Shown here: one piece after another, positions 12,101 through 63,906 of the stretch
Layout of the letters: the number at the start of each line of letters is the position of its first letter
Position numbering within the stretch: position 1 is the stretch's first letter
IMG/VR virus record: IMGVR_UViG_3300010413_000015
Span: 10,952-74,951 of that record
Reading direction: 5' to 3' (one strand)
DNA from: a virus
Length of the DNA stretch: 64,000 nt
Translations under genes and position numbers: made by a program
Notes under the pieces: model-generated
Seen by the model: the letters and a program-made list of their open reading frames with translations, nothing else
What the model was told of the DNA's origin: nothing
Databases searched by the model: none

Positions 12101-12642
12101 GATGGGTCGGCATTGAACCGCTGTGCAGACGGATAGTACCCTCCGGTTACTGGGGTGTGCCAGGTGTTGGTGCTAGGGGTGAACTTGTATCTCTTTATCC
12201 CCGAATCAGAGTTGCTCCAGTAGTAGACTCTGTATACCTCTGAGGTATAGGGGTAGTCTTGGTGCACCGCAATCTTGCAGTAGGGCTTGATGGTGAACGG
12301 GGCCGTGGTCTGGGTGAAATTCCAGCTCTCGCTTTGCCCCAACTGTGTGTGCCGGTAGTACAGCTTGTTGGAAGCAGATGTCCCCCACGAAGCTGGCGAG
12401 ACCATCTGAAACACCTTATAGGGACTTACTGCATTCCGGACAGAGTCTCCCCATACAGACTTTCCGGTACGGTCAAAGTAGTCATCACTGACGGCAATCC
12501 CACTGAGGGTTGCTTGCTCGACGTACAGAAGATTGCCAAAGTCAAGCCCGGTCTTGCGGATAGTCGCCATTACTGAAGGCTCAACCACTCTGTCTGCCAG
12601 GTACAGGTCGCGTAGGGTGCTGCTTATGGATGCACGACTCAT
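9163..12642 (-). CDS. Tail tip / hub protein with lectin-like insert
   Basis: 1159 aa, beta-rich, directly after the Dit-like gene. Confidence 0.6.
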   Translation of the reverse strand: MSRASISSTLRDLYLADRVVEPSVMATIRKTGLDFGNLLYVEQATLSGIAVSDDYFDRTGKSVWGDSVRNAVSPYKVFQMVSPASWGTSASNKLYYRHTQLGQSESWNFTQTTAPFTIKPYCKIAVHQDYPYTSEVYRVYYWSNSDSGIKRYKFTPSTNTWHTPVTGGYYPSAQRFNADPSSVSLNAILIDGEIVVVATYYVGPWLAVESLVDNNDTWPVYWRPTTKCYPLANPVTDFHNMDAQWGGVGLATTSNMRPWGGNAGVVLQALGPESSASILFHESWATSAPFEVLPSSQWGNMRAKVSGVNTIGDRAWATVTRWAVGMDDEPYARHVGLISSQNMVDWRDEGFVTSSELRGKLFYRSGDEYVYLIGNASVARAKANITIGADPSSERYTIPTITSFAANYSGPGSAPEFIASGLEDAAIEAFLVAGNELSVVIGASGETGLFCTADVVDAELTETSLGSAYNVTALGKTARATGSLSYRPLGTKMYESPYRLYSDFNMENRQPRLTVRQVTGDWVTHKSPESARYQLWCKQPGLALFPHNLGTPGFLFTTRFKPLVAAEGIYLAFWYKDEDNYYMAGASRIYSGPVRIVFRKVIDGVVSAPITWGTGPDFYTDEWYQMTVAADQGFIKVRILRESTDDEWVQVTDFADEDWVPPTWPDANYQFGLVVEDFEDYEGAIKYGDVDSATSGWIQDTGQTFPKTLGGKWLICGNQERQVATTNGGEILYVTPDFTSVPVPGTPYGVYKQFGTGKLAPQCLFDWIWFYENTTVWTAMDIARNALELAGITLDEDVQGDVSITPGVSNGVMVNTSIDMTWIGDQLTNSPNYLDVYFWLTNKNTTGPAHYSGFRLRLAELQADLYRITSTGDTSPSPEYVETHLGKQVYLRPPDQGNDNRDILIRVIGNKDFIAAYSTGSLMCAFPLEHVWPSGYLAVNGVSTTSCSHAEFSEVLDSFAWDSGEDLSMALGRLFEGKQVKLVENENGHLGISRFEGSQGYYSGDYTTNLTAIDEKMSLQDKASIIEMEVMEDRVYLLDREAAVGKPLRMLQISNPALVSGKVEAMEGARRALVLVSQQASEVSYKLHAPDPALLLEDWWTDADRSEDRAVAAFVWSMSTDEEGKPAIDCEVITRLRDFSVDSTTFNDASAKFDEKEFA

Positions 12643-13088
12643 AGCGGCAACCTCTGCACAATGCGCACTTCAGCAATAACCCATGTGCCCAAGGGGTCGT
12701 ACTCAAACTGTAGATTCAGGTCCCCTCGTAGTTGGCCTGGCCAGTATCCGTCATCTCCAAATGAGAGGACCTCAAGGTCTGTGGCCAGCCATGCGTCCAT
12801 AAGGTCATTGGCGTCCCCGACATAGATGTCTTCCTGGCCATCGTTCATGGTGGGATATGTCCCGTCTGGGGCCTGCACGATAAGCCTACCTGCCCATTGT
12901 TTGAAACCTCGTCTTGTGCCGACAGAACTCAGGAGGCGTCCATCATACAGGGATATGCCATAGCTAGTTGCTCCCTCGAAGATGGGCCCAGAGAAACCTT
13001 CTACCAAAACAGCGTAACACCGCTTCGAGGAGCCACTGTCCCACTTTAGGAAAAGTCCGCCCCTGCTGGTTGGAAACTCTATTGCCAC
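12639..13088 (-). CDS. Distal tail (Dit-like) protein
   Basis: 149 aa immediately downstream of the tape measure (synteny only). Confidence 0.5.
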   Translation of the reverse strand: MAIEFPTSRGGLFLKWDSGSSKRCYAVLVEGFSGPIFEGATSYGISLYDGRLLSSVGTRRGFKQWAGRLIVQAPDGTYPTMNDGQEDIYVGDANDLMDAWLATDLEVLSFGDDGYWPGQLRGDLNLQFEYDPLGTWVIAEVRIVQRLPL

Positions 13089-16000
13089 AATCCCCCCCTC
13101 ATTCTCTGCCTGGAGGCAGTCTTGTTCAGCTCTGCCTCAAACTTCCTCCATATCTCGGCCGCCAGTTGTCTCTCGTCCTGCCTCCCTCCTTCAACCGAGA
13201 TAGAGACGTTCATATTTCCGACGGAAAATCCGCTTGCGGTCAGCCTGCGGAGTGCCATGTTGGGGACAATGGTCCCATTCTGGTCTGGAACGAAAATCTC
13301 TGGTCCCACTTCACCCACCAGGTAACTACTCCCGGCTGTGACATCCCCCCCACCAGCCAGGCTGTTCCCGCTTCCACCTCCATCCCCTTGAGACTGGAAC
13401 ATACGGTTCAGGCGGTTCTCGATGCGGTCCAGAAGGTTCTGCCAGGCCTTGTCAAGGCTCGAATCCCTCTTGACGCTGCTCTCGAAGTGACCAATTAGGG
13501 TGTCCCACTTGCCCCAGAGGTCTCCGTCTTTCGAGAAATCGCTGAGCTGCTGCCTCAGGAAGGCAGCATAGGCATCTTGGGTCAGGTCCTGCAACCGCTG
13601 GTGCTCTATCTGGCCAGGGAAGACCACTTCCTCGAAGTACTTCTGTTCCTGGGTCATTTGGGCCAGGCGATACATCATATCGTCCTCAGCAATCTCTTGC
13701 TGTTTCGCGGCAATCGCCTGCTGCATCGCCGCCATAGCCTCTGCTTCTCCCATTTGCTCCTGGAGGTGCTTCATTTGCAGTGCAAACGACTCATCCATGT
13801 GCTTCTTGGAAAGGTCGAAGTTCTCCTGCATGTGTCGCTTCTGGAGCTCATAGTTCTGCGTCATGTGCTCCTTCTGCATCTCAAACTGCTCGGTCTCTAG
13901 ACGCTTGATATCTTCGTAGTGTGATTCCTGGTCTTTGAATGCCTGCGCCTGTTGGGCCCACAGCTTCTCCTGTCGCCCTTCCTCAACACCCCTACGCTTC
14001 TCAGAGACACCATAGTCCTCTTCCATACGTCCCCGCTGGCGGAGAAGCTCCTGCTTCTCGCGCCCGGAGGCGAAGCGAATGGCCCGGTTGATATCTTCCA
14101 TCCCACGGGTGTACTGCACCCCAGCCTGTTGCCGGTTGAACGCCATATCTTCACGGCCCCAGCGCTGGCCCTGCATCATCTGTTGCCATTGAACACCGAA
14201 CTGCCTTCTCTGGAACTCGGTGTTGACACCCCACATTCTCTGGCCTAGGGCAAAAGACGCTTGCTGTTGGGCATAGCCCTGCTCCAGGCTCTCCGTCCCT
14301 TGCTGGAAACCAAGGTTCAGCCGTTCCTGGCCCTGGCGATACTGAAGGCGAGCGCTCTCCATGGCTCGCTCAATACCGGCCCTCTGCTGTTGCGCTGCCA
14401 TTGCCGCAGCCGCAGCCTGCATTCCGTACAGCTCTCGGGACTGTTCTAGCTTCAGTTCCGCTCGCTGGATTTGGCCTATCATGCCCATCTGGTAGGTTCT
14501 GCCACCATAGCTAGAGGTTGCCCACTGGCCAGTGCCCATGCGGTATGCCTGGCTCTGGCGTAGTTGGTTCCAGGACAGCGCCCTTGAAGCAAGCTGGCCT
14601 ATGCCGTAGATACCACCACCAGGCCCTATCTCGTGTAAGGGCATAGCCCCCTCCACCAGGGGCATCCCCATAGCACTACGGAACCCACCTACGGCCCCCT
14701 GTGCCTCTGCGCCAAAGACCCCTTGGGCCGCACTGTATCCCAGGGCAGAGCTGGCAAAGTTGGCCATCTCCCCAAACTGGGCGTACTCGAAGGGAGTCAT
14801 CTGTCCAGAGGCTAGTGCTGCCTGCAGGCCCTGCTCAAACTGCCCGGCTACTGCCCCGGCCATGCCAAACCCTCTGGCCACAGCTCCTTGGCCCATTACA
14901 GACTGGGCCCATACCTGGCGAGCTGCAGGAGAAACGCCACGGGCTGCCATTGCCTGAACCCGGCCCTGCAGGGCTCGGGCATTTCCGCCGAGGTACTGGT
15001 AGATTTGACCCCCAAGGCCGGCCGCAGCCTCATATTGGGCCATTCCCTGAGCGCTTTGCCATGGAGCATTGGCCATGAACCCTATGGCTTCTGGACTTCC
15101 TGCCGCAAAGCCATACTCTTGTGCCGCACCAACGCCAATGGCTGCCTGTTCCCTCCGAAGCATCTGCTCTGGGGTTACACCCGGAGGGGTATAGATGACT
15201 CGCCCGTCAGGGAGCTCAACCATTTGGCCTTCAAGTTCCTGCTGTAGCCCCTGATAGTATCGGGCCGCAGCCTCTGGACCAAGGCCGCGCATGTCTGCGA
15301 ATGTGCGATACTGGCTGGCAATCTGTGCCGTGGCTCCACCAACTGCTGCGGTCTGAGGACCAAGTGTTTGCCCGATTCTCTGAGCTACTGCACTACCAGG
15401 TGTATACCCCATGGCAGAGACAATGGGCTGCATGCCATACCGGGCCTCTTGAAGAGCTGCAAGCTGGGTGGTTGTGACCCCACCAGCAAGCTGGCCCATG
15501 TACTGCTGTAGCATTTGTCCTGATACTCCAACTCCTATCTGTTGGAGTTGTCCTGCAACCCCTGAGGCCATGAGGAAGTTCTGTTGCCCGGCTGCTGTTG
15601 TTGGGATGTAGGGAGACAGGGCCCACATCCCTGCGCCCGTCCCGATCCCCAGATACTGGCTTACTTGCTTTAGGGTAGAGGCCATCCCGGGAAGCTGCCC
15701 ACTAATGGCTGCTGGCCCGAGCTGCTTGGCCAGCTCATCTACTCTTCCTTCGTACACGGCCTTTGGCCCGTATCCGAGCTCGGCCAGATAGCTGAAGGTT
15801 TCGTACTTCTTTGCTGGGTCTAGACCTGGAATATCCAGGTTTTCGATGTGGAGGCTGGCCCGGTCAATCTCTATCTGGCCAGACTTCACATACTGCGCAA
15901 CACCCTCGCGCAGTTGGCCTGCGTAGTCCTTGTCCAGAATCGAGCGCAAGCCCATGCCAACCCCTGTCCCAAGAGAGAGGTCGCCCTTGGTAGGCGAGCC

Positions 16001-19000
16001 CCCACCAGCCATGCCCTTGAGCCAGCTAAAGGCACCTCTCTGCGTCTCAGGCTCTGTGGCCAGACCGAGAAGCTCCCGGTAGACATTTCCGGGGGCAGCC
16101 TGTTCATAGGCCTGCCCAAGGAGAAGCCCCCCGGTCACAACGCCACCTGCCAGGGCGGCGATTGGGCCCATTCTAGAGCCTATTCCCATCATACCTCGCC
16201 CTAGAAGGCTTTCTCCCCCTAGCGTCTTTCCGAATCTGCCGAGCACTGACGCGGCAATGCCGGCTTTCGCACCAAACTCGAGTCCCTTGAGAATAGGTCC
16301 ACCAACTGCACCCAGTCTTTCACCGGCCCCATATGCGCCAGAGGGACCACCTAGCGTTGCCAGTATCTCACTGATACCAGCTTGCCCTCGAAGTGTGCCC
16401 ATACCGAAGCCCTGGGCGAAGGCCTGCTGGCCAGCCTGGGCCTGCATAATCCTGCCCATGGGACTATCCATAATGGACTGTGCAGTACCCCCCATCTGTG
16501 TAGCAAACCCTATCTGGGCACCAGCAAGCCCCCGTGCCTGTTCCATAGCACGGTTCACTGGTCCCCCAAAGATTCGCTCGGCCGCTGTCCAGCGGAAGTA
16601 TGCACCGCCAAAGGAGAACTCCTGCAGGAGCTGGTCGAGGCCCTGGCCAAGTGTGCCACGCATGCCCTGTGGTCTCTTGGGAGCCGGCCTGCCCCTTTGT
16701 CCACCGGTAGCCTCATAAAGGTCGTACTGGAACTGCAGGGCGTCTCGTGTTTCCACAGCGCCGATAGTCTCTGTGAGGGCTGGCTCGTTCTCGATCTTCT
16801 CCAGTTTCCTGCCAAGACGTTGCATGTTTTGGGTTACTGTCGCAACCACATCTTGGGGGACACCTGCTGCAGTCAGACCCTGTGGACCAACTTTTGCCCA
16901 TTGCTCCCTAATGTCCTGGGCCTGGCGGAAGGTCTTGGTGAAGGACTGTGCATCTTTCAGCATCTCCTTCTCGGCCCGAGTCAGGTCTCTCTGTACGGCA
17001 ATGGTCTCCCTAAGCTCTGGGGTCCACTGCTTCAGATGGTCTGCCACCTCATCCAGGGTCTTCCTCATCGACCCTGACATCCACAATCCCAACTCCCAGG
17101 GCTTCCCGCTTCCGGCTGTCTGCCGGGGGTTCAGGTCACGTTGCTGTTGCCCCTGAGAGGGCGGTACAATTGGTGCGCCGGGGTCTACACCCGGAGGCAC
17201 CCAGTTAGGGTCAAAGTTGGGGCCGGGCATCCCCGCCAGGGGGTCTGCCGGGTCAACTGGTGGCCTGTTGGGAGGCGGGGGAGCACCGGGAGGCGCAGCC
17301 ACTGTAGGCCTGGCGGCTGCCGGCCGTCGGCCTGCCTGTTGGAGATGTCTCCTAAGCTGGCCAGGTCGCGTAACTGGGGACTGAGCCATTGCAGGTGCTG
17401 CAGTCGCAACCGGAGGCGTAGGCTGTGTGGCTGCTGGTTGAGTCACCTCAGTTGGTGGTGTAAGATTGGGTTCCGGCCCCATCTCTGGTGGCGCCACAGG
17501 GACCCTAGGTGCTCGCTCTGGGTGTGGGCTCTCTGCAACTGGAGGTTCTGCACCAGGTGTGGCTAGCCAATCTGCCATCCCAGACGCTTCCAGGGCCACT
17601 GCTTGTTCCTCAATACTGACCCCTTGTCCGGCCCCCTTCTTCAAAGCAGTAAGCCTGTCTTGCATCTCTGACTTAAACCTGAGAAGAGTGTCGGCCAAGT
17701 CCCGGCCCACGCTCCTGGCCCCAAACTCTCCGTACAGGTTGGCACCGTGCTTCTCTGCATACCGACTAACGGCTCCTGCCCACTGCCCACCGATTGCCTG
17801 TCCAGAGGCGGCCTCCCTTACCCAGTCCTCATGTGTCTGACCAGCCTTCATCATTCGGGGAAGAATCTTGTATCGCTGCTCGGGTGCGGAGAATCGCTTG
17901 AACATCATCGCAAACTGCTGGGCCTGCTTCTGGTTAGGCCCGGAGAACATTGCACCCGCTTCTTCGGGAGACACAACTCCCTGCTGTACAAGCTCGGCAA
18001 AAGCGCCGACACTCTCCTTGCGAAGTCCTGCAAGGTTTCGCAAGGTTCCGGTGCCTACTTTCTCCCATTCCCCGGTGCTGCGCATAAATGCCTTGCCCCA
18101 GGTAGTGGTATTCATGAGCGCATGAACACTCATGACGTCCTGGGGGGGGATGGCGGGTCTCTGAGTATACCCATAGCTGCGGTTCCAGATAGACTGTACG
18201 GCAGACCTGGCTGTTTGGCCTACCTTCCCAGGAATCTGGAGTGCCCTACTCATAAGCCTTCGCATGTCCTGGAATCCAGGACCTATTGCATTGTAGAGCT
18301 CCCGGTTTTCCTGAACAAGTTCCTCGACCTTGCCCTCATCCATGGTATGGTAGTCAAGGGCCTTTCTCCTGACAATCTCCATGGCCGCTTGTAGGTCTTG
18401 GTCTCCGGGAACCATCTCAGCAGGGAGGCTTCCAGCGCCCTCAGACTGCACACGCTTGCGCCCAATCTCACGTACTCGTTCTGGAGAAAGCTCTACACCA
18501 GCGGCGTCGTAGAACTTGCTACCTTGCACCTGAGCCCCACCAGTCATCAGGGCATAGGCAATGTCTGCGTCAAAGTCGCCGCCAGCCATACCCTGTAGGT
18601 ACTCTGACACTACCATCCGGTTGGGGTCATAACCTAGGCCCTCGATAAGCTCTCGGGACACAGTAATGCCCTGAGCTGCACGGTCAAAGCTGGACTCTCC
18701 CTGAGTGGGGAAGCGAATCATGAAACCTGCTTGCCCGGCCTCACGGTCTGGCAGGTACATCTCATTGATGCCCAGTGCCTTAGAGCCAAGCACCTTGTAC
18801 CCCTCCAGGTACCTCCTGCCAGGTGTTACTCCCTGGGCCCGTCGGAGGCCCTGCTCGGACTCAGAAATCTTGCGTTGCTCCTCCATGACGGTCCTGCGAT
18901 ACTCGACAAACGGCGCCTTCTCCTGATTCAGAAGGGACCGGACCATGCCAAACTGCCCTCTAAGGTAGCGAGAGACCTCTGTTTGTTCGAGGGCACCTTC

Positions 19001-45405: not shown

Positions 45406-45555
45406 TTATGCGCTCGCACATTGAGAGGGGGGTCACACTTTGGAAAGCCGTATTAGTAGTATAGGGTGAGTCCGGGACTGTTGCTTGGGGGGGGATACCC
45501 CCCCCTCCGCACCCCTATCCCGGGCTTAAATCTTTCCCTATACCAGGAGGCAGCG

Positions 45556-45900
45556 ATGGCCAGAATCGAGGGCCATGCGCGGGGCAAGCTCGCAGAGCTG
45601 CAGCTCCGACGGTGCGTCTCCCCACAGGTTGCCAGTGACCTGGAGAAATACCTCCACCGACTGGTGACCCACAGTGATACAGCCATTGTCGTGCAGTTGG
45701 ACGAGGCTGTATCAGATCAGACTAGGGACGCCTGGTCCGAGCAAGACCTCTTGGTTGCAGTGGTACGCCGGGGCACGGTGTATACCGTGTTCTTGAGCCG
45801 CTGTGACTATGGGGACCCCACCAGGGCGTGGGCCATTGGCAAGTTCAGGGTGGCACGCGCCATAATTCTTGGAAAGGAGGTGCTCGATGGATTGTCCTAA
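45556..45900 (+). CDS. Hypothetical early protein
   Basis: AGGAGG RBS before ATG 45556. Confidence 0.6.
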   Translation: MARIEGHARGKLAELQLRRCVSPQVASDLEKYLHRLVTHSDTAIVVQLDEAVSDQTRDAWSEQDLLVAVVRRGTVYTVFLSRCDYGDPTRAWAIGKFRVARAIILGKEVLDGLS

Positions 45901-46210
45901 CCTTGAGCACAGACTTGGGTACTGGGTGAACAACCCGGCCACCCTCGCAGTACAGGTCCTGCCTGACAGCAGGGCCACCTTCCCTATGGTGCAGGTCCTC
46001 TTCCGTACAGAGCCATGGCCTGGCTTCACGGAAGAGCGCCTGACCAAGGTGCACGACAGTGTGGTGGAAGCACGCGCCACACTGCAGGCCCTTGGATGGG
46101 CCGTGGCCAGGGTAGGCGTGTATGATGTCTATACACCCACCGAGCCCACACCCTCCTGGCTGAAGGGCATGGAGGATGCCTACGAGAACAGGGAGCATCC
46201 CTGGTTCTAG
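45887..46210 (+). CDS. Hypothetical early protein
   Basis: AAGGAGG RBS before ATG 45887. Confidence 0.6.
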   Translation: MDCPNLEHRLGYWVNNPATLAVQVLPDSRATFPMVQVLFRTEPWPGFTEERLTKVHDSVVEARATLQALGWAVARVGVYDVYTPTEPTPSWLKGMEDAYENREHPWF

Positions 46211-46219
46211 CATCCTCCC

Positions 46220-46310
46220 TACAACTGAATACCTCGCAGAGGGCACGCATGCGCCTTAATTGCCATGCGTGTAATGCGCCAGCGCCAGTCCCAAGCCTGG
46301 GCACAGTACC
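46220..46310 (+). ncRNA. Twister ribozyme, circularly permuted (type P5-like)
   Basis: CGCA-GAGGG-P1 hairpin (CACGCATG/CATGCGTG)-TAA-TGCG...GCCAG-TCCCAAGC-CTGG; core elements and both pseudoknot partners present. Confidence 0.75.
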
Positions 46311-46351
46311 CTTCAGAGGACAAGAGCCTCAGGGGTGCGGAAAGGGCCACC

Positions 46352-46747
46352 ATGAACAAGACAGTTCATGCGGACCTGAAGAATCTGAACGCCGGCAAGA
46401 TCATTGAGGCATACCGCACGGTGTGCAAGAATGACTCTTTCACAGACCATGCTGTGGTGTGGTCTGTGGCGGCCAGCCTTGTGCGGTACGCAAAGGCCGG
46501 CAGCCCCGACATCAGCCTCTACTACCAGTCGGTTGCTCAGTACAGGGCAGCAGAGGGTAGGAACCAGGCAGAGGTTGCAGTGGCAGTGCGTTGGTCCCAG
46601 TGGCTTACTCAGCACATGGACAGGAATGACTGCCCTCGCACTATCCAAGCCCAAGAGATTCTAGTCTCTAGAGTTTGGATGGGCCTACAAGTACAGCGCA
46701 ATCCTGAGCTGTACCAAGAAGCCCTAGACCGCATCTACCCAATGTAG
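46352..46747 (+). CDS. Hypothetical early protein
   Basis: AAAGGG RBS before ATG 46352. Confidence 0.6.
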   Translation: MNKTVHADLKNLNAGKIIEAYRTVCKNDSFTDHAVVWSVAASLVRYAKAGSPDISLYYQSVAQYRAAEGRNQAEVAVAVRWSQWLTQHMDRNDCPRTIQAQEILVSRVWMGLQVQRNPELYQEALDRIYPM

Positions 46748-47082
46748 TAGATGCGTACAACTGAATAATTCCCTACTGTGCCCTAATTGCCAGTGGGGTG
46801 AAACCAGCGTATAACACACCCAGAGTCAAGTCCCGAGGGGTGGGCCCAGTACTGGGCAGGGCTGGAGGGCAGGCCGGCAGCAGCAGACAGGTGGCTGCCG
46901 GCGATCTTGGGAATCCCCGAATGGGGTAATATTTCCAACCCAAATCCTGTTCCCAAGCTATGGGCTATGGCCTAACCGGTAACAAGTGAGGCCCCGGGCA
47001 CGCAGCTTACCTTACCCCTGAACTATGTGCCCGGGGGTACCGCTGTTTCTATGCTGGCGAGGCTTCCAGGAGTAGGCAAGAT

Positions 47083-47095
47083 TTTCCGACGGAAA
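47083..47095. repeat. 13-bp quasi-palindrome, copy 8
   Basis: TTTCCGACGGAAA, intergenic just past the terS stop. Confidence 0.95.
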
Positions 47096-47115
47096 CCTTC
47101 TGGAGAGTGGGGGGA

Positions 47116-47643
47116 TTACTGGACATTGACGACAATCTCCCCATCCTCTACCTCTATCTCCTGAGTGACTTGGCGCAACTTCAGGCGTTTCCCCTGATGC
47201 CCCATGACCGCATCAATAATCCGACGAGCATCAGAACTCCCCCCCACCCCGCTAGACTGACTATCTCGTTCTAGGTCCATCTTCACATCACGGAGAAACC
47301 TCGCCGCCTGAACCGCTTCCTTACTATCGCCAGACGTGGCGATATTCGACATGTTCACAAGGACCCGTACCCACCAGGTAGATAGGACCTCCGATGCTAT
47401 CGCATCAAGGCCACGCATTTCGGAAAGAATTGCCTCCTGGATAAGAGGGTTCTTGATGCTGTCATAGAACACCTGGCGAGAGACATTCGCCTTCTCGCAG
47501 GCTGCCTTGATGTTCGTTGCCCCCTCCTGAAAGGCAGCACGCACCGCTAAGACACGGTCCCAGTCACGTTGGTCCTTTGGAGTGAGCAGGACGGTCTCCT
47601 TCTCTACTGCCTCTGCTGGGATGATTTCCACACTCTTGTTCAT
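47116..47643 (-). CDS. Probable terminase small subunit
   Basis: N-terminal HTH NIKAACEKANVSRQVFY, helical core, EAVQAARFL. Confidence 0.55.
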   Translation of the reverse strand: MNKSVEIIPAEAVEKETVLLTPKDQRDWDRVLAVRAAFQEGATNIKAACEKANVSRQVFYDSIKNPLIQEAILSEMRGLDAIASEVLSTWWVRVLVNMSNIATSGDSKEAVQAARFLRDVKMDLERDSQSSGVGGSSDARRIIDAVMGHQGKRLKLRQVTQEIEVEDGEIVVNVQ

Positions 47644-47734
47644 AGTTCAGCCCTTTGTCAGTTAGTGTCACCGTGACGCTAAGTATAGCACAGGGGGCGA
47701 GCCAGGGCAAGTTGCCCTAGAAAGGAAATATCCA

Positions 47735-48028
47735 ATGTCTGACGCCATTGAGCGCAATATCATCATGAGGGCTCGTGGTCTCATCCCGATGATAGCCGTC
47801 ACCCTGAGCGGCATGGTGGGATATTCGGCATCCTCCTATCGGCCTGACCGGTTGCGCTATGACTCTTACGAAAGTGTGGTTTGGGGCAACCTCTACGCGC
47901 AGAGCGTGTACATTTGCCAGATGACCATTAGCCCCGATTCCATCAAGCTGTTTGACTTCCGTAAAAGCCTGGGGATTGACTCTCCTATCGTCATCCCCAT
48001 AAAGGAGTCGTGCAATGGAATGGAATAG
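47735..48028 (+). CDS. Hypothetical protein
   Basis: AAAGGA RBS. Confidence 0.5.
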   Translation: MSDAIERNIIMRARGLIPMIAVTLSGMVGYSASSYRPDRLRYDSYESVVWGNLYAQSVYICQMTISPDSIKLFDFRKSLGIDSPIVIPIKESCNGME

Positions 48029-48260
48029 TGGTCGGGAGTGTTGGGAGTCCAAGACCCATCCGCCCTACATATCGGTGTACTTGAGCATAGGGGGGTGGAA
48101 GCCTCAGTTGCTTGTGTGGGTCAGCTACAGCAACTCAAGCCTGGAGACGCCCGGCCACTATGAGCCCTGGCAGACGGGCTGGGGCTGCAACACGAGGGAG
48201 TCCGCCATTTCCCAGGGCAAGGATTGGGCAGAGGCAGAGGAACTCGAGTTCCGCGAGTAG
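48015..48260 (+). CDS. Hypothetical protein
   Basis: AAGGAG RBS; Trp-rich 81 aa. Confidence 0.55.
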   Translation: MEWNSGRECWESKTHPPYISVYLSIGGWKPQLLVWVSYSNSSLETPGHYEPWQTGWGCNTRESAISQGKDWAEAEELEFRE

Positions 48261-48285
48261 TCCCTGCCATCTCGCCGTAGAGGAA

Positions 48286-48298
48286 TTTCCGACGGAAA
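48286..48298. repeat. 13-bp quasi-palindrome, copy 9
   Basis: TTTCCGACGGAAA, intergenic. Confidence 0.95.
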
Positions 48299-48329
48299 CT
48301 GAGAGGGGTCATTCCCCCAAGGAGGGAAG

Positions 48330-48521
48330 ATGAAGCTGGGACGGAAAGTGATTACCACGCAGGTTGACGCGCCCGGCAAGACGTTGGAGGACATTGGGGT
48401 CCAGAAGCAGGCCATAAGGAAATGCGGGAGCCGGTGCAGCTCCTGCAACAGGGTCTGCAACTTCCGGGACCCCAGCCAGCCCCTGCCCAAGGGGGGCACA
48501 GGGTTCGGCTTCCGGCTCTAG
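48330..48521 (+). CDS. Small Cys-rich protein
   Basis: AAGGAGG RBS; CxxxCxxCxxxC. Confidence 0.55.
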   Translation: MKLGRKVITTQVDAPGKTLEDIGVQKQAIRKCGSRCSSCNRVCNFRDPSQPLPKGGTGFGFRL

Positions 48522-48637
48522 TCGAACCCCGCAGTACAGAAATACAACCGAATACAGCCCCCCGGCCAGCCTTCATTGCTGACCACCAGGGGGTGATCGG
48601 GTAGAGGACGAAAGGGCCTCGCCCATTGGAGGGCTTG

Positions 48638-48904
48638 ATGCTACACTTCCACTACTCGCTTCATGCAGTGCTGTGGGACGCAGAAGGATATCACGTGGAT
48701 ACCCGTGACTTCCTGAACTTCCATGAAGCCATGAAGGCTCACAGGCGCAACGTCCAGCGCCAGGCCTGTGTGCTTTCTAGGCTAGAGACGCCAAAATCGA
48801 CATGGCTTGCCGAGCGGATGGGGGACGGCAACTGGTCCTTCCATGTCACTCCCGTCCCAGCCTGGAAGAAGGACTGGGTCCAGAATGCGTTCTCTAACGA
48901 CTAG
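48638..48904 (+). CDS. Hypothetical protein
   Basis: GGAGG RBS. Confidence 0.5.
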   Translation: MLHFHYSLHAVLWDAEGYHVDTRDFLNFHEAMKAHRRNVQRQACVLSRLETPKSTWLAERMGDGNWSFHVTPVPAWKKDWVQNAFSND

Positions 48905-48952
48905 GGCCTATCGGCCTAGACCGTGAATCTTGACTCTTGAAAGGAGAGTACA

Positions 48953-49189
48953 ATGGCAGCGACAAAGGTGTATTTCGACGGAACGTCCACAAAGGTCCAG
49001 CCAGAGGACCGGTTGGTTCTGGTGGTCGAGAACGGGAAAGGGCGCAAGCCCAAGGAGGCCATGACCTGGGCCGAGTTCAAGTCCCTGCAGGAGCAGGGCA
49101 TCACCCTGTCCGAGAAGAAAAGTCGGCGCCGGGTGAATCGGCGCTATCGGCATGGCTACGAGGTGGTAGTTGAGGTCCCTGTGGCCTAA
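48953..49189 (+). CDS. Hypothetical protein
   Basis: AAAGGAG RBS. Confidence 0.6.
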   Translation: MAATKVYFDGTSTKVQPEDRLVLVVENGKGRKPKEAMTWAEFKSLQEQGITLSEKKSRRRVNRRYRHGYEVVVEVPVA

Positions 49190-49290
49190 TCACTGCCTGT
49201 CGGCGCCTTACAGCTAAATACATGGCCCCCCGCCCAGGGGCCAGATCGGGGTGAGACCACAATAGGGGGTCCCCCAATTCGGAGGCTGGT

Positions 49291-49773
49291 ATGAACGGCT
49301 CAATAAGGCTAGTTTTCGAGATTGAGGGCACGCCACCTGACAATCAAGGTGGCATCTGCTACATTGACAATGATGTCAGCGATTGGGCCTCGGTAGATGA
49401 GGCCCTGTTCGAGCTCGAACTCGAGCCCGGGGTTGTGGAAGCCGGCGCCCAAATCATGTGTGGGGTACATGGTTGGGCCCCAGCCCCGTTCGAGGTGTGT
49501 GAGTACTGCCGTAGCGAGGAAGCCGAGAGGCGGATGGAGTATATACATACCCTATCTGCTGATGCCCTTGCTCAGGCACATGCGGAAGAGGAAGCCCGGT
49601 ACTGGGGCTACAGCCTGTATACAACCCGTGAGCAGGAACAAGCCTGGGACGCCCAGGCCCGTTATGAGGCCGAGGCACAAGCTGAAGAAGCCGCTAACTG
49701 GCGGCTCCAGACCGAGGAAGAAATCTCCGCTATCGCGGAAGACCACGAGCGGTTCGCCGCTCGTTTCTTGTAA
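49291..49773 (+). CDS. Acidic hypothetical protein
   Basis: GGAGG RBS; strongly Glu-rich; CxxH...CxxC. Confidence 0.6.
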   Translation: MNGSIRLVFEIEGTPPDNQGGICYIDNDVSDWASVDEALFELELEPGVVEAGAQIMCGVHGWAPAPFEVCEYCRSEEAERRMEYIHTLSADALAQAHAEEEARYWGYSLYTTREQEQAWDAQARYEAEAQAEEAANWRLQTEEEISAIAEDHERFAARFL

Positions 49774-50180
49774 GCCTCACCACGAACAGAGTGGTGTAGC
49801 CGCTCCACAGGAGCGCAAGGGGGAGGCCTGCCTGGTTCCTTCCCCTGTTTCTGAAAATCCAGGAGAGGGTAGGACGTTGAAAACGGCTGGGGCACAGGGC
49901 CGTGAGTAGACGTATGTGTGCTGTGCCCAAGGTAATGGAGGGTCCCCTTGTCGCAAATTGGCCCTGTGTAGGCAGCATGCCGCCTAACCAAGCATGCCGA
50001 GCCAGGGACTGGTATCCCCTTGGTCGTGTACGAGTATGATACCACGCAGATGACCTAGACTGCTCGTGTACCCCAGCACTGAGCAGATGAACACAGGGGA
50101 GGTAACACCCGCCACCTGTAGTGAGTGCGGGACATGGGTACCCAGGGGGAGGCAGGCCACCTCCCCCGATCTTATCTTAT
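49774..50180 (+). ncRNA. Candidate structured leader / ncRNA
   Basis: About 400 nt without a credible ORF; many hairpins; long-range pairing of 49825-49833 with 50150-50158. Confidence 0.4.
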
Positions 50181-50224
50181 TTCTAAGGGCTAGGCCCACG
50201 GCGTGGGCAGAAAGGTGGTGTATC

Positions 50225-50638
50225 GTGGCAGACTACCTCATCAGGTTTGACGGTGGTTCTAGGGGAAACGGAACCGACAACGCTGAGGGCTATGGCTCCT
50301 ACAGCATCGAGGCGGCTGATGGCCGCAAGGTCCTGCAACGCCTTGATTTCGGGACCGGCGTGACCAACAACGAGGCCGAGTACCGGGCGCTCCAGGCAGC
50401 CGTGGTAGACCTCCACGGCCGCATCAGCAAGGTGTCTAGCCCGGCCAACTTCTCCCTGGTTATTCAGGGAGACTCGAGCCTGGTCATCAACCAGCTTCAG
50501 GTGACCAAGCCGTGGAAGTGCAAGGCCCCAAACCTCATCCAGTACCGCAATTTCGTGCGGGACCTTCTGGCCACCTTTGGCAGCGTCTCCCTTCAGCATG
50601 TGGGAAGGGACGCAATGGTTGCAGAGTTCGGTCATTAG
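50225..50638 (+). CDS. rnhA: Ribonuclease HI
   Basis: FDGGSRGN, TNNEAEY, GDSSLVINQL, WKCKAPNL. Confidence 0.85.
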   Translation: MADYLIRFDGGSRGNGTDNAEGYGSYSIEAADGRKVLQRLDFGTGVTNNEAEYRALQAAVVDLHGRISKVSSPANFSLVIQGDSSLVINQLQVTKPWKCKAPNLIQYRNFVRDLLATFGSVSLQHVGRDAMVAEFGH

Positions 50639-50767
50639 AGAGGGCTGTGGCTCTCTCTTTTTCTGTCCCCCCTGTAGGGGGACGATCCTTACCGGGTACC
50701 TCCATACCCGGGCGCGACAGGACGCCTTCCTGTCAGAGAACTAAGCTTCAAATGGAAGGAGGGCCAG

Positions 50768-52966
50768 ATGAAGCTCGCCGTTCTCGCAATTCTCACCCTG
50801 GTGTGGGAGGGGACCGTGCCGTACCTCCACACACTCTACGAGGCTCTCGTGGGAGAGCCTCTGGCAGTAGTCCAGGTCAGCACCAAGCCCAAGCACCGCC
50901 AGTGGATGACACGCCTGCTGGTAGGGCTTCAGGACAAGGGGTGGCACCTGGACTTTGCCACAAGTGCCAGAAAGAGCGGACAGGCCATCATTTCCCAGAC
51001 TGGGAAAGTGTCCTCGCTCTTCTGGCGCACGGCTGAGGAGGCCATTGCCTATGGCAGTATCCTTCTCACGCCGTGCTGGGGTGCGTACCCCCAGTCCATG
51101 ACCCTGAAGGTTCGGGTGGTGGAGGATGGGGAGTACGACACCGGGGATTGCCACGGCAAGGCGAGCCGGGCAGTCTATGCCGCCCTTGGTGGTGTTGTGC
51201 AACAGGCCGCACAGTTCCGCCTAGGGGTCCTGGCCGGTGGCTTGCTGGCCAAGGGCACATTCTGCATCCCAGATGTGTCCCTCGCCTGGCCAGACGGGGT
51301 AGACCTGATTCTGCCCCGGAGCTGCTTCAAGAGCAGCAACAAGCCTGGCCCTGGCACGTATACCTGGGACCTGGTCCTGGGTGTCGTGAACTGGAGCAAG
51401 CCCACCCCGACCAAGATGGGCTGGCAGATGCTCCAGTGGTTCAGTTGGGCAGCGGTAGAGGCCGACATCCTTCCCAGGGTCAAGGAGGGAGCAGCCCAAC
51501 TGGTTGCCGCCCTGGCAGATGTCAGGGCACTTGCCGAGCTTCTCCGGCTATACTCTGTGCCCAGCATCGACACAGAGGACGGGGAAGATGACCAGGCCGA
51601 GGTCTTGCTCATCGACGTTCTCCGAGCAGACCACAGTGGCTACCTGTCCCGGCACCCACACGTAGTTCGGCGGGTGAGCGACATGCTGCGCCGACGGTGG
51701 CAGCACCTCGCAACCGGTGGTGGGCAGTTCCTGACCGGCCTTATGGGGCTACCGGATGACACCCTGCCATTCGGGGTGGTGGCCACCAGCGACATCCCTG
51801 TCGGAGATGTCCTTGTGACCCGGTATCCCATCAGGTTCTGGGGTGACGTTCGGAAATGGGTCAACGTCGCGCCCGTCCAGAGCCTCAAGGGCACCATCTG
51901 GATGTCCCATGAGACCGCTGCCGTGCTGGGTGGCGATTTCGACGGGGACTACTTCCAGGTGGTTCCGTCAGCCACCTATCCCGCCCTGTCCCAGGACATG
52001 GAGAACTGGGCCGACCGCCCCACTGTGAATGTGGTCAAGGTCAAGGATAGGAGGGCCACCCCCCTGAGTGCCCAGGGGCTGGCCGAGGTCTTTATGAGCA
52101 ATGTGGACAACATGGTGGGTAATGTGGCCCTGCTCATTGCCCGTGCTGGCGCTGCCGGCAACCATAACGCAGTTGTCCAACTTGCCCAGGAGTTGCAGGT
52201 CGCCGTTGACAAGTTCAAGTTCAACGTAGACAACGACACCGACTTCATTGATGCCTGCAACACGTCCATTCCAGACCTCACATGGGCATGGGACCGTGAA
52301 CACCGCGATGCCTACCATGCCCGGCCGATGAAAGTGCACGAGCGGGATATGGACACCATATCCTGCCTCATCCGGGAGGTCAATGCCCTGTGGGTTCCTT
52401 ACCAGGGTATGGCCCTTCCCCTATGGCACTTCACCGGCCTGTTCTCCAAGCCCGACCAGCACATGGATGCAGCTCGTGGGCTGGCAGTGAGGTATGCTGC
52501 CAATGTGCGCACGGCTCTCCGTGCCGGGGACAAGAAGGCCATCTCTAAGCTCTTCAAATCCCTGGAGGCGTGGTCGCGGCAGGTGGAGAATCCGACCGAG
52601 TGGGCTGCTGCCATCTGGCATGCGGTTCACGCGGAGAATGCCAAGGGCACCGGCTCGCTGGCCTTTGCTGCGTTTCCGACGGAAATTGCAGAGAGGGTGG
52701 CCAGCCTGCCGTCCACCCCCGAGGCACCGCGCAATGCCACCATTGTTGGCCTGGAGAAGAACGAGTGGGCCAACAACGCGAACGACCTGGTAGGTGAGCA
52801 GCAGGTGATGTTCGATATCACCACGTTGCATGGCCAGGTCCGGTTCTCCGCCGTGGTAGACGGGCGGGTGGTCGGCATTGTCTCCAAAGAGACCCCTGTC
52901 CCCCAGGGGACATTCACCATGGGTCTCACGGTAAAGGGCGCTTGCGTGTACGCGAGTGCCTCCTAG
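50768..52966 (+). CDS. Single-subunit two-barrel RNA polymerase (YonO / cellular-RdRP-like), non-virion
   Basis: TGDCHGK, QFRLG...LAKGT, VTRYP, LGGDFDGDYF (51935-51949), LQVAVDKFK. Confidence 0.85.
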   Translation: MKLAVLAILTLVWEGTVPYLHTLYEALVGEPLAVVQVSTKPKHRQWMTRLLVGLQDKGWHLDFATSARKSGQAIISQTGKVSSLFWRTAEEAIAYGSILLTPCWGAYPQSMTLKVRVVEDGEYDTGDCHGKASRAVYAALGGVVQQAAQFRLGVLAGGLLAKGTFCIPDVSLAWPDGVDLILPRSCFKSSNKPGPGTYTWDLVLGVVNWSKPTPTKMGWQMLQWFSWAAVEADILPRVKEGAAQLVAALADVRALAELLRLYSVPSIDTEDGEDDQAEVLLIDVLRADHSGYLSRHPHVVRRVSDMLRRRWQHLATGGGQFLTGLMGLPDDTLPFGVVATSDIPVGDVLVTRYPIRFWGDVRKWVNVAPVQSLKGTIWMSHETAAVLGGDFDGDYFQVVPSATYPALSQDMENWADRPTVNVVKVKDRRATPLSAQGLAEVFMSNVDNMVGNVALLIARAGAAGNHNAVVQLAQELQVAVDKFKFNVDNDTDFIDACNTSIPDLTWAWDREHRDAYHARPMKVHERDMDTISCLIREVNALWVPYQGMALPLWHFTGLFSKPDQHMDAARGLAVRYAANVRTALRAGDKKAISKLFKSLEAWSRQVENPTEWAAAIWHAVHAENAKGTGSLAFAAFPTEIAERVASLPSTPEAPRNATIVGLEKNEWANNANDLVGEQQVMFDITTLHGQVRFSAVVDGRVVGIVSKETPVPQGTFTMGLTVKGACVYASAS
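52673..52685. repeat. 13-bp quasi-palindrome, copy 10
   Basis: TTTCCGACGGAAA in the RNAP gene. Confidence 0.95.
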
Positions 52967-53260
52967 CTGTGTCCGGGTCTCCCCTGATATCCCCTATCGG
53001 GGGAGACCATGAGTACACAGTTCTTGCTTGGCAAACTCCAGAGTCTGTCTCAGACAGACCCTGGGGCCTGCCCAGCAGGCCATTACTCGCCTGAGGTCAG
53101 GGGCCCATTCACTAGCAGGGCCTTGGGTTTTGCCGGGACCCTAAGACTGGCCTAACCCGGGAGACAATCTGCTGCAGGCCGGGGGCCTATTTACCCCAAC
53201 GCTATCGCGTTAAGGCCACGAGCATCATTTACATGGCGAAACTAGAGAAAGGGGCACGCC

Positions 53261-53605
53261 ATGAAGAACCAGTGGAAAATCGAGCAGCTTGCGACAGCCC
53301 TATACCTCAAGGTCAGAACAGGAAAGTATTCGCCTTGGGAGGTGTCAGACCTTGCTCTGCGCATTTCTGACCTGGCGATAGACGAGTACAGGAGCGCTGT
53401 CGCGCAAGACTGTGAGATTGCCCAACCGGGCGTTGACAACGTTCTTAATCGTGGTACAATATCCACGTGCGGAACAGAAGACCAAACCAAATCTATACAA
53501 CCAAAGGAGAAGGAAAATGTTCCACAAAGTGAGTTTGATTGGACATCTGGGCCAGGAGCCGCAGCTGCGCTACACGCCGGACGGGATTCCCGTCTGCAAC
53601 ATTAG
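53261..53605 (+). CDS. Hypothetical protein
   Basis: AAAGGGG RBS; 3' end overlaps the ssb promoter and start. Confidence 0.4.
   Translation: MKNQWKIEQLATALYLKVRTGKYSPWEVSDLALRISDLAIDEYRSAVAQDCEIAQPGVDNVLNRGTISTCGTEDQTKSIQPKEKENVPQSEFDWTSGPGAAAALHAGRDSRLQH
53433..53460 (+). promoter_or_regulatory. sigma70-type promoter for ssb
   Basis: TTGACA-16 bp-TACAAT with GTGG. Confidence 0.6.
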
Positions 53606-53987: not shown

Positions 53988-54020
53988 CAGTACGGGCAAG
54001 TAGTTCTACAGATGAATAGA

Positions 54021-54057
54021 GTGGGGCAGGTTAGGCCGGGACCTGCCCCACTTTTTT
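54021..54057 (+). terminator. Intrinsic terminator
   Basis: GTGGGGCAGGT-N9-ACCTGCCCCAC-TTTTTT. Confidence 0.85.
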
Positions 54058-63774: not shown

Positions 63775-63906
63775 GGCAAGGGTAGCTCAGTGGTAGAGCA
63801 ACGAAAAAGCGAATCACCATACCAATTATCCCCTTGTAGGGGGGCGGCCGTGATTTGTTCTAGCCTATGGAGCCGTTGGTCGCAGGTTCGAATCCTGCCC
63901 CTTGCC
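63775..63906 (+). tRNA. tRNA-His-like RNA (anticodon ATG) with a 59-nt insert at 29/30
   Basis: Acceptor GCAAGGG/CCCTTGC plus G-1:C73; D arm GCTC-AGTGGTA-GAGC; T arm GCAGG-TTCGAAT-CCTGC; anticodon stem ACG^GC/GCCGT once 63804-63862 is removed. Confidence 0.65.

Follow-up and report, generated by a model that had tools for sequence, protein, structure and literature searches.

What does a short AT-rich box followed by a hairpin do when the same cassette recurs between early genes of a phage? The box, TACAACYGAATA, is 12 bases long, and the 74,951-bp genome (G000) has exactly three copies of it, always on the + strand and always in intergenic DNA. Positions below are those of the 64,000-nt stretch that was analysed (the window), which corresponds to positions 10,952-74,951 of IMGVR_UViG_3300010413_000015; shuffling gave 0.01 expected exact matches in the window against the three found. 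Copy 1 (TACAACTGAATA, 46220..46231) starts 9 nt past the stop codon of the ORF 45869-46210, copy 2 (TACAACTGAATA, 46756..46767) 8 nt past that of the ORF 46352-46747, and copy 3 (TACAACCGAATA, 48543..48554) 21 nt past that of the ORF 48330-48521. An ATG at 48638 is found 83 nt beyond copy 3, and copy 2 is followed by about 350 nt without a convincing ORF and then by a convergent gene. A variant with two mismatches, box 4 (TACAGCTAAATA, 49209..49220, + strand), lies 19 nt past the stop of the ORF 48953-49189, with an ATG at 49291, 70 nt on. These are the four boxes that an earlier, sequence-only reading of this DNA had placed 8-21 nt after stop codons, and all four were recovered there. A fifth box, also with two mismatches and on the + strand (TACAGATGAATA, 54007..54018), was missed in that reading; it is located 19 nt past the stop codon of the SSB gene, at a convergent gene junction. 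Matches with two or fewer mismatches were not enriched by count alone (6 found, 3.35 expected), and boxes 4 and 5 are therefore supported by their position, not by their number. Four DNA sequencing runs contained essentially the same phage, and the cassettes showed no variation. No RNA run was listed among the sequencing runs that contain the stretch. Samples with this phage include marine sediment or mangrove material, and its host is possibly a member of the Anaerolineae.

All three exact boxes are followed by hairpins with the apex GC-CYUMAUU-GC. At the DNA level, GCCYTMATTGC has only three exact matches in the window (GCCTTAATTGC at 46253, GCCCTAATTGC at 46780 and GCCTTCATTGC at 48569), when 0.14 would be expected. 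Folding of the + strand gave hairpin 1 at 46244..46271 (CACGCAUG, a bulged C, GC, loop CUUAAUU, GC, CAUGCGUG) and hairpin 2 at 46771..46798 (CCCUACUG, a bulged U, GC, loop CCUAAUU, GC, CAGUGGGG, with one U.G pair), each with 8 bp, a bulge of one pyrimidine, a GC/GC closure and a loop of 7 nt. Hairpin 3 of this type I (48557..48594, + strand) is compound: CAGC, loop CUUCAUU and GCUG (48567-48581) are enclosed by GG/CC and by GCCCCC/GGGGGU, and only CAGC/GCUG closes the loop within the larger C6/G5U stem. The earlier claim that different stems close nearly the same loop in these copies is confirmed; the stem that it gave for copy 3, GGCCA/TGACC, contains a C-A mismatch. Behind box 4, folding and the terminator scan yielded a + strand hairpin (49223..49243; UGGCCCC, loop CCGCCCA, GGGGCCA) whose loop is unrelated to the conserved one and which has no U run. 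The terminator scan, which looks for a GC-rich hairpin with a direct U run, did not return hairpins 1-3. Only box 5 is directly followed by a canonical intrinsic terminator (54018..54054, + strand; a 15-bp stem, then TTTTTT), and a copy in a relative (L012 7040) partly resembles one (TTGTTTGT). We also considered attC sites, REP elements and IS200/IS605 ends and rejected them, because it is the loop and not the stem base that is conserved here and because the units are single.

The same box and hairpin were found in three relatives, namely L012 (two copies), C283 (a 77-kb contig of an Anaerolineae MAG) and the complete 87-kb phage G002, whose proteins are 30-45% identical and whose intergenic DNA is otherwise unalignable. 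The box is identical or changed at one base at L012 7040 and 9505, at C283 57290 (minus strand) and, in G002, at L175 8899 (minus) and 1881 (plus), and the consensus across the phages is [T/C]ACAACY[G/A]AATA for the box and GC-CYUNAUY-GY for the apex. This conservation across three distant relatives, as judged by sequence comparison, is new here, and promoters that evolve together with a phage polymerase typically show such persistence between diverged relatives. No similar DNA was found in the INPHARED phages, and a strict box-plus-loop pattern had no match in IMG/VR. A relaxed pattern gave 9 matches in IMG/VR and 98 in GTDB genomes, in line with the chance estimate, and after a stem filter only L119 was credible. 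Among the loci of relatives of the 732-aa polymerase of this phage (37-46% identity), the cassette was present in L012 only and was absent from L013-L033 within the DNA examined. Searches with the tape-measure polymerase domain and a 175-aa HTH protein added just G002 and the Anaerolineae MAG. Two box-like candidates were discarded: TACAACGAA, upstream of the L010 and L011 hairpins, is the coding end of their polymerase gene, and three occurrences of ACAACTGAATA in the MAG contig C167 fall within a repeated stretch that reads like coding sequence.

In the seven conserved-loop copies from the four phages, the otherwise unrelated stems (4-17 bp around loops of 7 nt) carry compensatory changes, and G.U pairs favour the gene-sense strand by 4 to 1. 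The sequence-only reading had taken covarying stems around a fixed loop as the mark of a structural signal and had proposed a covariance-model scan of relatives. The first idea is supported and is strengthened by the strand specificity; the scan (model R1) covered 473 kb of relatives and turned up no additional hairpin with the conserved loop. These results indicate that the cassette is a real regulatory signal. A minus-strand reading, in which a hairpin and then TATTCRGTTGTA would form a terminator and a promoter and in which TATTC would be shared with the motif of phage P23-45 (below), was rejected because codon statistics and ribosome-binding sites place the genes on the + strand, and the + strand is also the one that carries the ribozyme described next and that is favoured by the wobble pairs. 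A second motif, GATCGGG..GAG, is common to the regions behind copies 3 and 4 and was also dropped, since it is not repeated elsewhere.

At copy 1 the hairpin is part of a ribozyme. The Twister-P5 family (Rfam RF02684) matches 46235..46300 on the + strand, 3 nt behind box 1, over model positions 1-58 of 58 with 57.3 bits (gathering threshold 37.6, E 2.8e-9), which confirms the earlier statement that hairpin 1 is P1 of a twister. Because the twister lies on the + strand, copy 1 is transcribed as + strand RNA. Copy 1 shares P2, a closed P1, UAA, P4 and the L4 letters with the family and differs in that its P1 is lengthened by the bulge, GC/GC closure and 7-nt loop of the cassette. The predicted cleavage site, read off the alignment to the family consensus, is U46272/A46273 (UAA at 46272-46274), one base past the hairpin. 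Rfam showed no ribozyme at window copies 2-4 or in the relatives, and none of the six other conserved-loop copies has a twister. Copy 1 is a rare case where the genomic setting, with P1 as a member of a repeated regulatory hairpin family, suggests the purpose of a bacterial or phage twister, namely to cut an early transcript exactly at a regulatory hairpin.

Which polymerase could use such a signal? All three genomes checked (G000, G002 and the MAG that contains C283) encode a tape measure protein that is fused to a predicted two-barrel RNA polymerase. In G000 the tape measure is a 2689-aa ORF (13079-21148, minus strand) whose N-terminal 1196 aa align with G002 and with the MAG contig G001:C116, with invariant R812, P814 and T815 (RxPT) and G857-D858-x-D860-x-D862 (GDxDxD). 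G000 and L012 also carry a second, non-virion two-barrel polymerase. G002 and C283 have the cassette and showed no match to a YonO-like polymerase, and the box therefore tracks the tape-measure polymerase. In addition, near-consensus sigma70 promoters, which drive the rest of the genome, are missing from the + strand block 45466-53400. Two-barrel RNA polymerases of the tape-measure-fused and YonO-like kinds have been recognised as a class only recently, and to our knowledge P23-45 is the only phage in which promoters for this class have been mapped. The YonO promoter sequence was still undefined as of 2017 (PMC5467207).

We propose that the cassette is a phage-specific transcription signal in which the box is a promoter of the injected tape-measure polymerase and the hairpin is a 5′ leader structure, a tentative reading to which we give a probability of roughly 0.4. 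The 12-bp box would be read as double-stranded DNA by the fused polymerase, which would start at or just behind the final TA, and a stable hairpin would follow within 0-13 nt of the transcript start, most often after 3 nt. The stem would be free to vary. The apex would be kept, presumably because it is bound by a phage or host factor or stabilises the 5′ end. At copy 1 the twister would be built around this hairpin, and its cleavage one base further on would remove the leader and leave a 5′-OH mRNA for the ORF 46352-46747. A hairpin or twister begins 0-3 nt behind the box in 7 of 13 copies, which is expected if a 5′-terminal structure matters. Of the eight exact or one-mismatch copies, six are 83-190 nt ahead of a same-strand gene. 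A 12-bp box kept in four divergent uncultured phages offers a concrete template for in vitro promoter-recognition tests of such a polymerase, and the conserved-loop hairpin offers a defined RNA bait for finding a binding partner.

A linear 12-mer promoter fits better than the N4-type promoter put forward in the sequence-only reading. At such a promoter a hairpin would extrude in the DNA, the polymerase would recognise the loop, and transcription would start downstream of the hairpin. In its favour, the phage has a virion polymerase, the apical bases of the hairpin are sequence-specific, as at N4 promoters, the loop is fixed on a variable stem, and a phage SSB gene is nearby; N4 requires SSB. 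However, the cassette differs from N4 promoters in the size of the loop, in the strand, in where it lies relative to the transcript and probably in the type of polymerase. N4 promoters have 3-nt loops and 5-7-bp stems, unlike the 7-nt loops and 4-17-bp stems seen here, and the wobble pairs are on the non-template strand by 4 to 1. With a start downstream of the hairpin, the RNA would lack the 5′ half of the twister, although this ribozyme is intact and scores 57.3 bits. A search of the genome with PF00940 found no T7/N4-type polymerase domain, a weak point because the control genomes were likewise silent. We therefore regard an N4-type promoter as highly improbable.

The closest known counterpart is Thermus phage P23-45. 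Its tape-measure-fused polymerase (gp96) starts at an 11-12-nt AT-rich motif, TTATTCCTTTA, that ends in TA and abuts the start site, with 14 copies ahead of small pre-early genes (PMC10770324, Suppl. Data 1). Start and end sites have been mapped in that phage, and the virion-polymerase terminators are hairpins with a conserved loop (PMC10770324). The likeness covers the fusion of a two-barrel polymerase to the tape measure protein, the second non-virion polymerase in G000 and L012, the short, strongly conserved, oriented AT-rich motif with a TA end ahead of small early genes, and the adjoining conserved-loop hairpins. In G002, one box is directly behind a canonical intrinsic terminator and ahead of a WYL-domain gene for which no consensus sigma70 promoter was seen by eye, and this order matches the terminator-then-promoter order of P23-45. 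In contrast, the two motifs are unrelated (TTATTCCTTTA versus TACAACYGAATA), and the order at the cassette is reversed, with the hairpin behind the box here and the hairpin plus U run ahead of the motif in P23-45. The polymerases are not BLAST-similar, and the tape-measure polymerase has no BLAST similarity to any cultured phage protein. The cassette has 2-5 copies per genome (three exact and two variant in G000) against 14. The P23-45 copies are at the genome end that enters first, whereas the two in the complete genome of G002, at 29.3 and 36.3 kb of 87 kb, are away from the genome ends. The differences in box sequence, polymerase and location all count against the promoter reading.

The placement of the box relative to genes points partly elsewhere. 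Nine of 12 copies are 0-21 nt past a same-strand stop codon and none overlaps coding sequence, whereas the next start codon is anywhere from 50 to 190 nt away, and the box therefore looks anchored to the upstream gene. Box 2 (46756), box 5 (54007) and L012 17323 face a convergent gene and have no gene to serve downstream. In five copies (window 54007, L012 7040, C283 58131, C283 42275 and L175 1881) a hairpin and a U-rich run follow immediately, and transcription would abort there unless such signals have no effect on the polymerase. In four copies, GAAUA, one half of the box, is predicted to form base pairs with the U-rich tail that follows the hairpin; the idea that the box has one fixed partner was rejected because the predicted pairing differs from copy to copy. 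Each of these four observations counts against a promoter.

The spacing from stop codons and the convergent junctions favour a rival explanation, in which the cassette would be the trailer of the upstream gene and would mark the RNA end, with the hairpin protecting the 3′ end. That end could be set where the phage polymerase terminates, where a nuclease processes the AU-rich box or, at copy 1, where the twister cuts, which at its predicted site would make the hairpin the 3′ end of the upstream RNA. Termination is pictured as sequence-specific, as at the 26-nt conserved-loop terminators of the P23-45 virion polymerase (PMC10770324) or at U5NU in vaccinia early transcription. Box variants directly ahead of canonical terminators and L012 7040, which joins a conserved-loop hairpin with TTGTTTGT, agree with this explanation, as do the G.U pairs, which indicate that the hairpin acts on the sense strand. 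However, most conserved-loop hairpins have no U run, and the ordinary terminators of the phage (49745 and 50637) have no box. If stopping at copies 1, 3 and 4 were efficient, the genes further on would fall silent, as no promoter is visible behind these copies, and the signal would be redundant in G002, where the cassette comes after a canonical terminator. Twelve invariant linear bases also exceed the needs of known nuclease sites or terminators. We consider an RNA 3′-end signal rather unlikely.

A second RNA-level explanation likens the cassette to a nut or put site or takes it as the binding site of a regulatory protein. In the nut-like version, the box would correspond to boxA and the hairpin to boxB, and the nascent RNA would recruit a phage or host factor that lets the polymerase read through terminators; alternatively, the cassette would bind a translational or stability regulator. 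The bipartite layout fits, in that a short, variable spacer separates a conserved linear box from a hairpin with an unchanging loop on a free stem, and so does the copy number, with two or three good copies in each genome. The position just past a stop codon recalls lambda nutR, which is located after cro. Strong terminators at 49745 and 50637 precede the RNase H gene and the gene of the 732-aa polymerase, and neither terminator is followed by a promoter, so that read-through is needed. The exact copy at L175 1881 in G002, on the strand opposite to the neighbouring genes, is 16 nt downstream of a consensus sigma70 promoter and is thus probably transcribed from it, which favours an RNA site and counts against the promoter reading. 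On direct reading, box and hairpin show no sequence likeness to the boxA and boxB consensus: the 7-nt loop with GC/GC closure and often a bulge differs from the 5-bp stem and GNRA-like pentaloop of lambda. All cassette copies of one genome can share a direction, unlike lambda nut sites, and no N-like arginine-rich protein was identified. Moreover, the hairpins of several box copies lack the conserved loop, the box is predicted to be base-paired in four copies, and the twister would cut the hairpin of copy 1 off the downstream RNA. We consider a nut-like or regulator-binding site unlikely.

PeSL cassettes of T4-type phages, in which a stem-loop with a conserved stem is upstream of a sigma70-type early promoter, offer a further comparison (PMC2839356, PMC4122927). 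Like them, the cassette combines a repeated intergenic stem-loop with a promoter-like motif and is kept while the flanking small genes are exchanged between relatives. However, its hairpin is downstream of the box, the loop rather than the stem is conserved, and the box contains no sigma70 hexamers.

Finally, the same 12 bp could serve both as the DNA promoter of the tape-measure polymerase and, in RNA, as one half of a bipartite stop or processing signal completed by the conserved-loop hairpin, a combination that we hold to be improbable. Each cassette would then end the upstream unit and start the next. RNAs begun at the box would lack it and so pass the hairpin, and at copy 1, self-cleavage by the twister would have taken over from termination at that point.

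The 12-base AT-rich box TACAACYGAATA has exactly three matches in the window, at 46220, 46756 and 48543, all on the plus strand (0.01 expected), and no additional copy was found in the remainder of the genome. The loop motif GCCYTMATTGC also has exactly three matches, at 46253, 46780 and 48569 (0.14 expected), and each sits 24-33 nt past a box. The distances from stop codon to box are 9, 8 and 21 nt, respectively. Two variants with two mismatches, whose support is positional, were counted as copies 4 and 5: TACAGCTAAATA at 49209, which starts 19 nt past a stop codon, and TACAGATGAATA at 54007, which lies 19 nt past the SSB gene and 0-2 nt ahead of a textbook terminator. The window covers bases 10952-74951 of a 74,951-bp IMG/VR phage contig with an estimated completeness of 86%. 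Among public runs, a marine sediment metagenome was the best source of DNA of the phage, and no cassette variants were seen among the DNA runs that contain it.

Nothing similar to the stretch was found in INPHARED, and the cassette (box plus downstream hairpin) was carried by four genomes only, including that of the window phage. A profile search of metagenome contigs for the 732-aa YonO-like polymerase (50768-52966), whose homologues contain Pfam RdRP PF05183, yielded L012 (MTKX01014851.1, 44% identical). L012 has CACAACTGAATA at 7040, 8 nt past a stop, with a long stem (apex GCCTTAATTGC) and then TTGTTTGT behind it, and TACAACTGAATA at 9505, which abuts a stop codon and precedes CCCTTG/CCCAG stems enclosing GCCCTCATAGC. 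A relaxed-pattern scan of GTDB genomes, in which match numbers were close to our own chance estimate, yielded C283, a 76.8-kb contig within an Anaerolineae MAG. Proteins that this contig has in common with the window are SSB, RNase H, portal and one of 625 aa. Its hairpin has GCCCTGATCGC enclosed by a stem of 9 bp with one bulged T, 10 nt past CACAACCGAATA and 10 nt past a stop codon. Clade genes occur on three contigs of this MAG (DAOUMD01): C283 has SSB, RNase H and portal, and C116 and C9 have homologues of the tape-measure polymerase, which is a weak hint of a host in Chloroflexota. The fourth carrier, G002, reached through the 175-aa HTH protein at 47116-47643, is a complete phage genome of 87 kb that has terminal repeats. 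In G002, TACAACTAAATA runs directly into a 17-bp stem (apex GCCTTAATCGT), behind a canonical terminator and 117 nt ahead of a WYL-domain gene, and an exact TACAACTGAATA lies at L175 1881, 16 nt past a consensus sigma70 promoter, with a hairpin and U-rich run behind it. Apart from this, intergenic DNA could not be aligned between these phages, and the small genes flanking the cassettes show no homology between them.

In hairpins 1 and 2, an 8-bp stem, a bulged pyrimidine and GC/GC lead up to a loop of 7 nt (CUUAAUU and CCUAAUU, respectively), while hairpin 3 has CAGC/GCUG enclosing CUUCAUU within an outer C/G stem. After covariance-model realignment of the seven conserved-loop hairpins, standard pairs occupied 83% of cells, compared with 62% in shuffles and 28-46% in slid controls. 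Changes on both sides of a pair occurred in 11 cells, a number reached by 0/500 shuffles. Fitting the alignment to structure flatters these figures, but the stems plainly have unrelated sequences, which bears out the sequence-only reading that they covary around a fixed loop. The cassette strand has four G.U/U.G pairs (two of them in L012 7040, one in copy 2 and, in G002, the apical G.U), against one C-A mismatch that would read as a wobble pair on the opposite strand. The gene-sense strand is therefore the one on which the hairpin works, whether as RNA or as ssDNA.

The same reading had identified the copy 1 hairpin with P1 of a twister, correctly: a full-length Twister-P5 ribozyme occupies 46235-46300 (Rfam, 57.3 bits versus a gathering score of 37.6), and its closed P1 is the cassette hairpin, with the predicted UAA cleavage step directly 3′ of it. 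The ribozyme also indicates that copy 1 is transcribed as plus-strand RNA with a start no later than 46235, a position only 3 nt past the box. The accompanying suggestion of an N4-like hairpin promoter is contradicted by the loop size, the strand and the intact twister, and we consider it very improbable.

Genes in the window run leftward from ~45.2 kb and rightward from 45466. The rightward small ORFs, rather than the overlapping minus-strand ORFs, are the coding ones: they have Shine-Dalgarno sequences and the codon-position GC and purine bias of reference genes, from which the minus-strand ORFs differ. Near-consensus extended -10 sigma70 promoters (TTGACA-N14-TGGTAtAAT) serve most operons in the window phage (919, 893, 35278, 45296, 53433 and 54706), G002 and C283, but none was found within the plus-strand block 45466-53400. 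Strong intrinsic terminators at 49745-49770 and 50637-50666 precede the RNase H and 732-aa polymerase genes with no recognisable promoter behind them, so expression of both genes needs read-through or an unknown promoter. Read-through would suit a nut-like role, and the cassette layout also fits. Neither sequence nor protein evidence backs this reading, and we regard it as doubtful.

We tentatively favor, with a probability of about 0.4, a reading in which the box would be a promoter and the hairpin a 5′ leader structure of the resulting transcript. Extremely conserved and AT-rich, the box is also oriented and ends in TA; the block lacking strong sigma70 promoters, the order terminator, box, gene in G002, and the start of structure 0-3 nt past the box in 7/13 copies, twister included, also argue for it. 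The box also tracks the candidate virion polymerase. An N-terminal part of 1196 aa in the 2689-aa tape-measure ORF has homologues in G002 (2638-aa ORF) and the MAG, with RxPT and GDxDxD invariant, whereas the 732-aa polymerase profile had no match in either. Co-occurrence of the box is therefore with the tape-measure polymerase and not with the YonO-like one, with the caveat that L012 is partial and that the MAG's tape-measure gene is on another contig. A T7-type domain gave no match in the genome, but the controls were also silent. In the Thermus phage P23-45, TTATTCCTTTA is where the tape-measure-fused polymerase starts; this motif abuts the start site at 14 places ahead of small pre-early genes, and a second polymerase uses a GC-rich motif (PMC10770324). 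The YonO promoter sequence was still undetermined in 2017 (PMC5467207).

Several features count against a promoter and point instead to a 3′-end role, which we consider unlikely, if somewhat less so than the nut-like one. The box lies 0-21 nt past the upstream stop codon in 9/12 copies, with the next ATG 50-190 nt away; three copies face convergent genes; a hairpin and U-rich run lie behind five; twister cleavage would make the hairpin a 3′ end; and the host polymerase probably transcribes the box at L175 1881. The P23-45 virion enzyme has seven terminators with a common 26-nt hairpin motif and a conserved loop (PMC10770324). A plain terminator, however, is at odds with the missing U run in most conserved-loop hairpins, with the lack of another visible promoter for the genes that follow copies 1, 3 and 4, and with the absence of the box from the phage's ordinary terminators. 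All other readings together seem improbable, including dual use of the box as a DNA promoter and as the RNA half of a bipartite stop or processing signal. In the PeSLs of T4-type phages, a stem-loop precedes a sigma70 promoter (PMC4122927).

The 175-aa protein gene (minus strand) has a cassette on each side in the window, L012 and G002; the protein is conserved in the latter two at 31-38% identity, and its ESM Atlas features resemble HTH_Tnp_1_2, phBC6A51 or Terminase_5 (0.95-0.96). A clade-wide palindrome, TTTCCG(A/T)CGGAAA, often adjoins the cassettes (window 47083, 48286 and others; L175 ~8945 and 2057), its 11-mer core having 14 matches in the window phage genome (both strands counted) and ~47 in G002; the L012 version, at 7120 and 9629, is TTTCCG(CC/GG)CGGAAA. 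Of the 350 noncoding nt that follow box 2, 40 (46801-46840) recur in a mangrove metagenome contig with unlike flanks and may be a conserved noncoding RNA, with a fold z-score of only -1.5. An Rfam tRNA match at 63776-63906 (50.5 bits) has a 70-nt insert within the anticodon arm, and ARAGORN called no tRNA anywhere in the window. G002 carries two group I introns (L180 6257-6558 and 7520-7819). In five AT-rich distant relatives (L005, L007, L008, L010 and L011), with YonO-like polymerases 28-30% identical to that of the window, a hairpin CCCT[GA]GC-TTAATT-GCT[GA]GGG and a T run lie directly past the polymerase stop codon (~12240-12275); its stem covaries and its apex is the conserved loop minus one C, with weak covariance-model scores (E 6-9).
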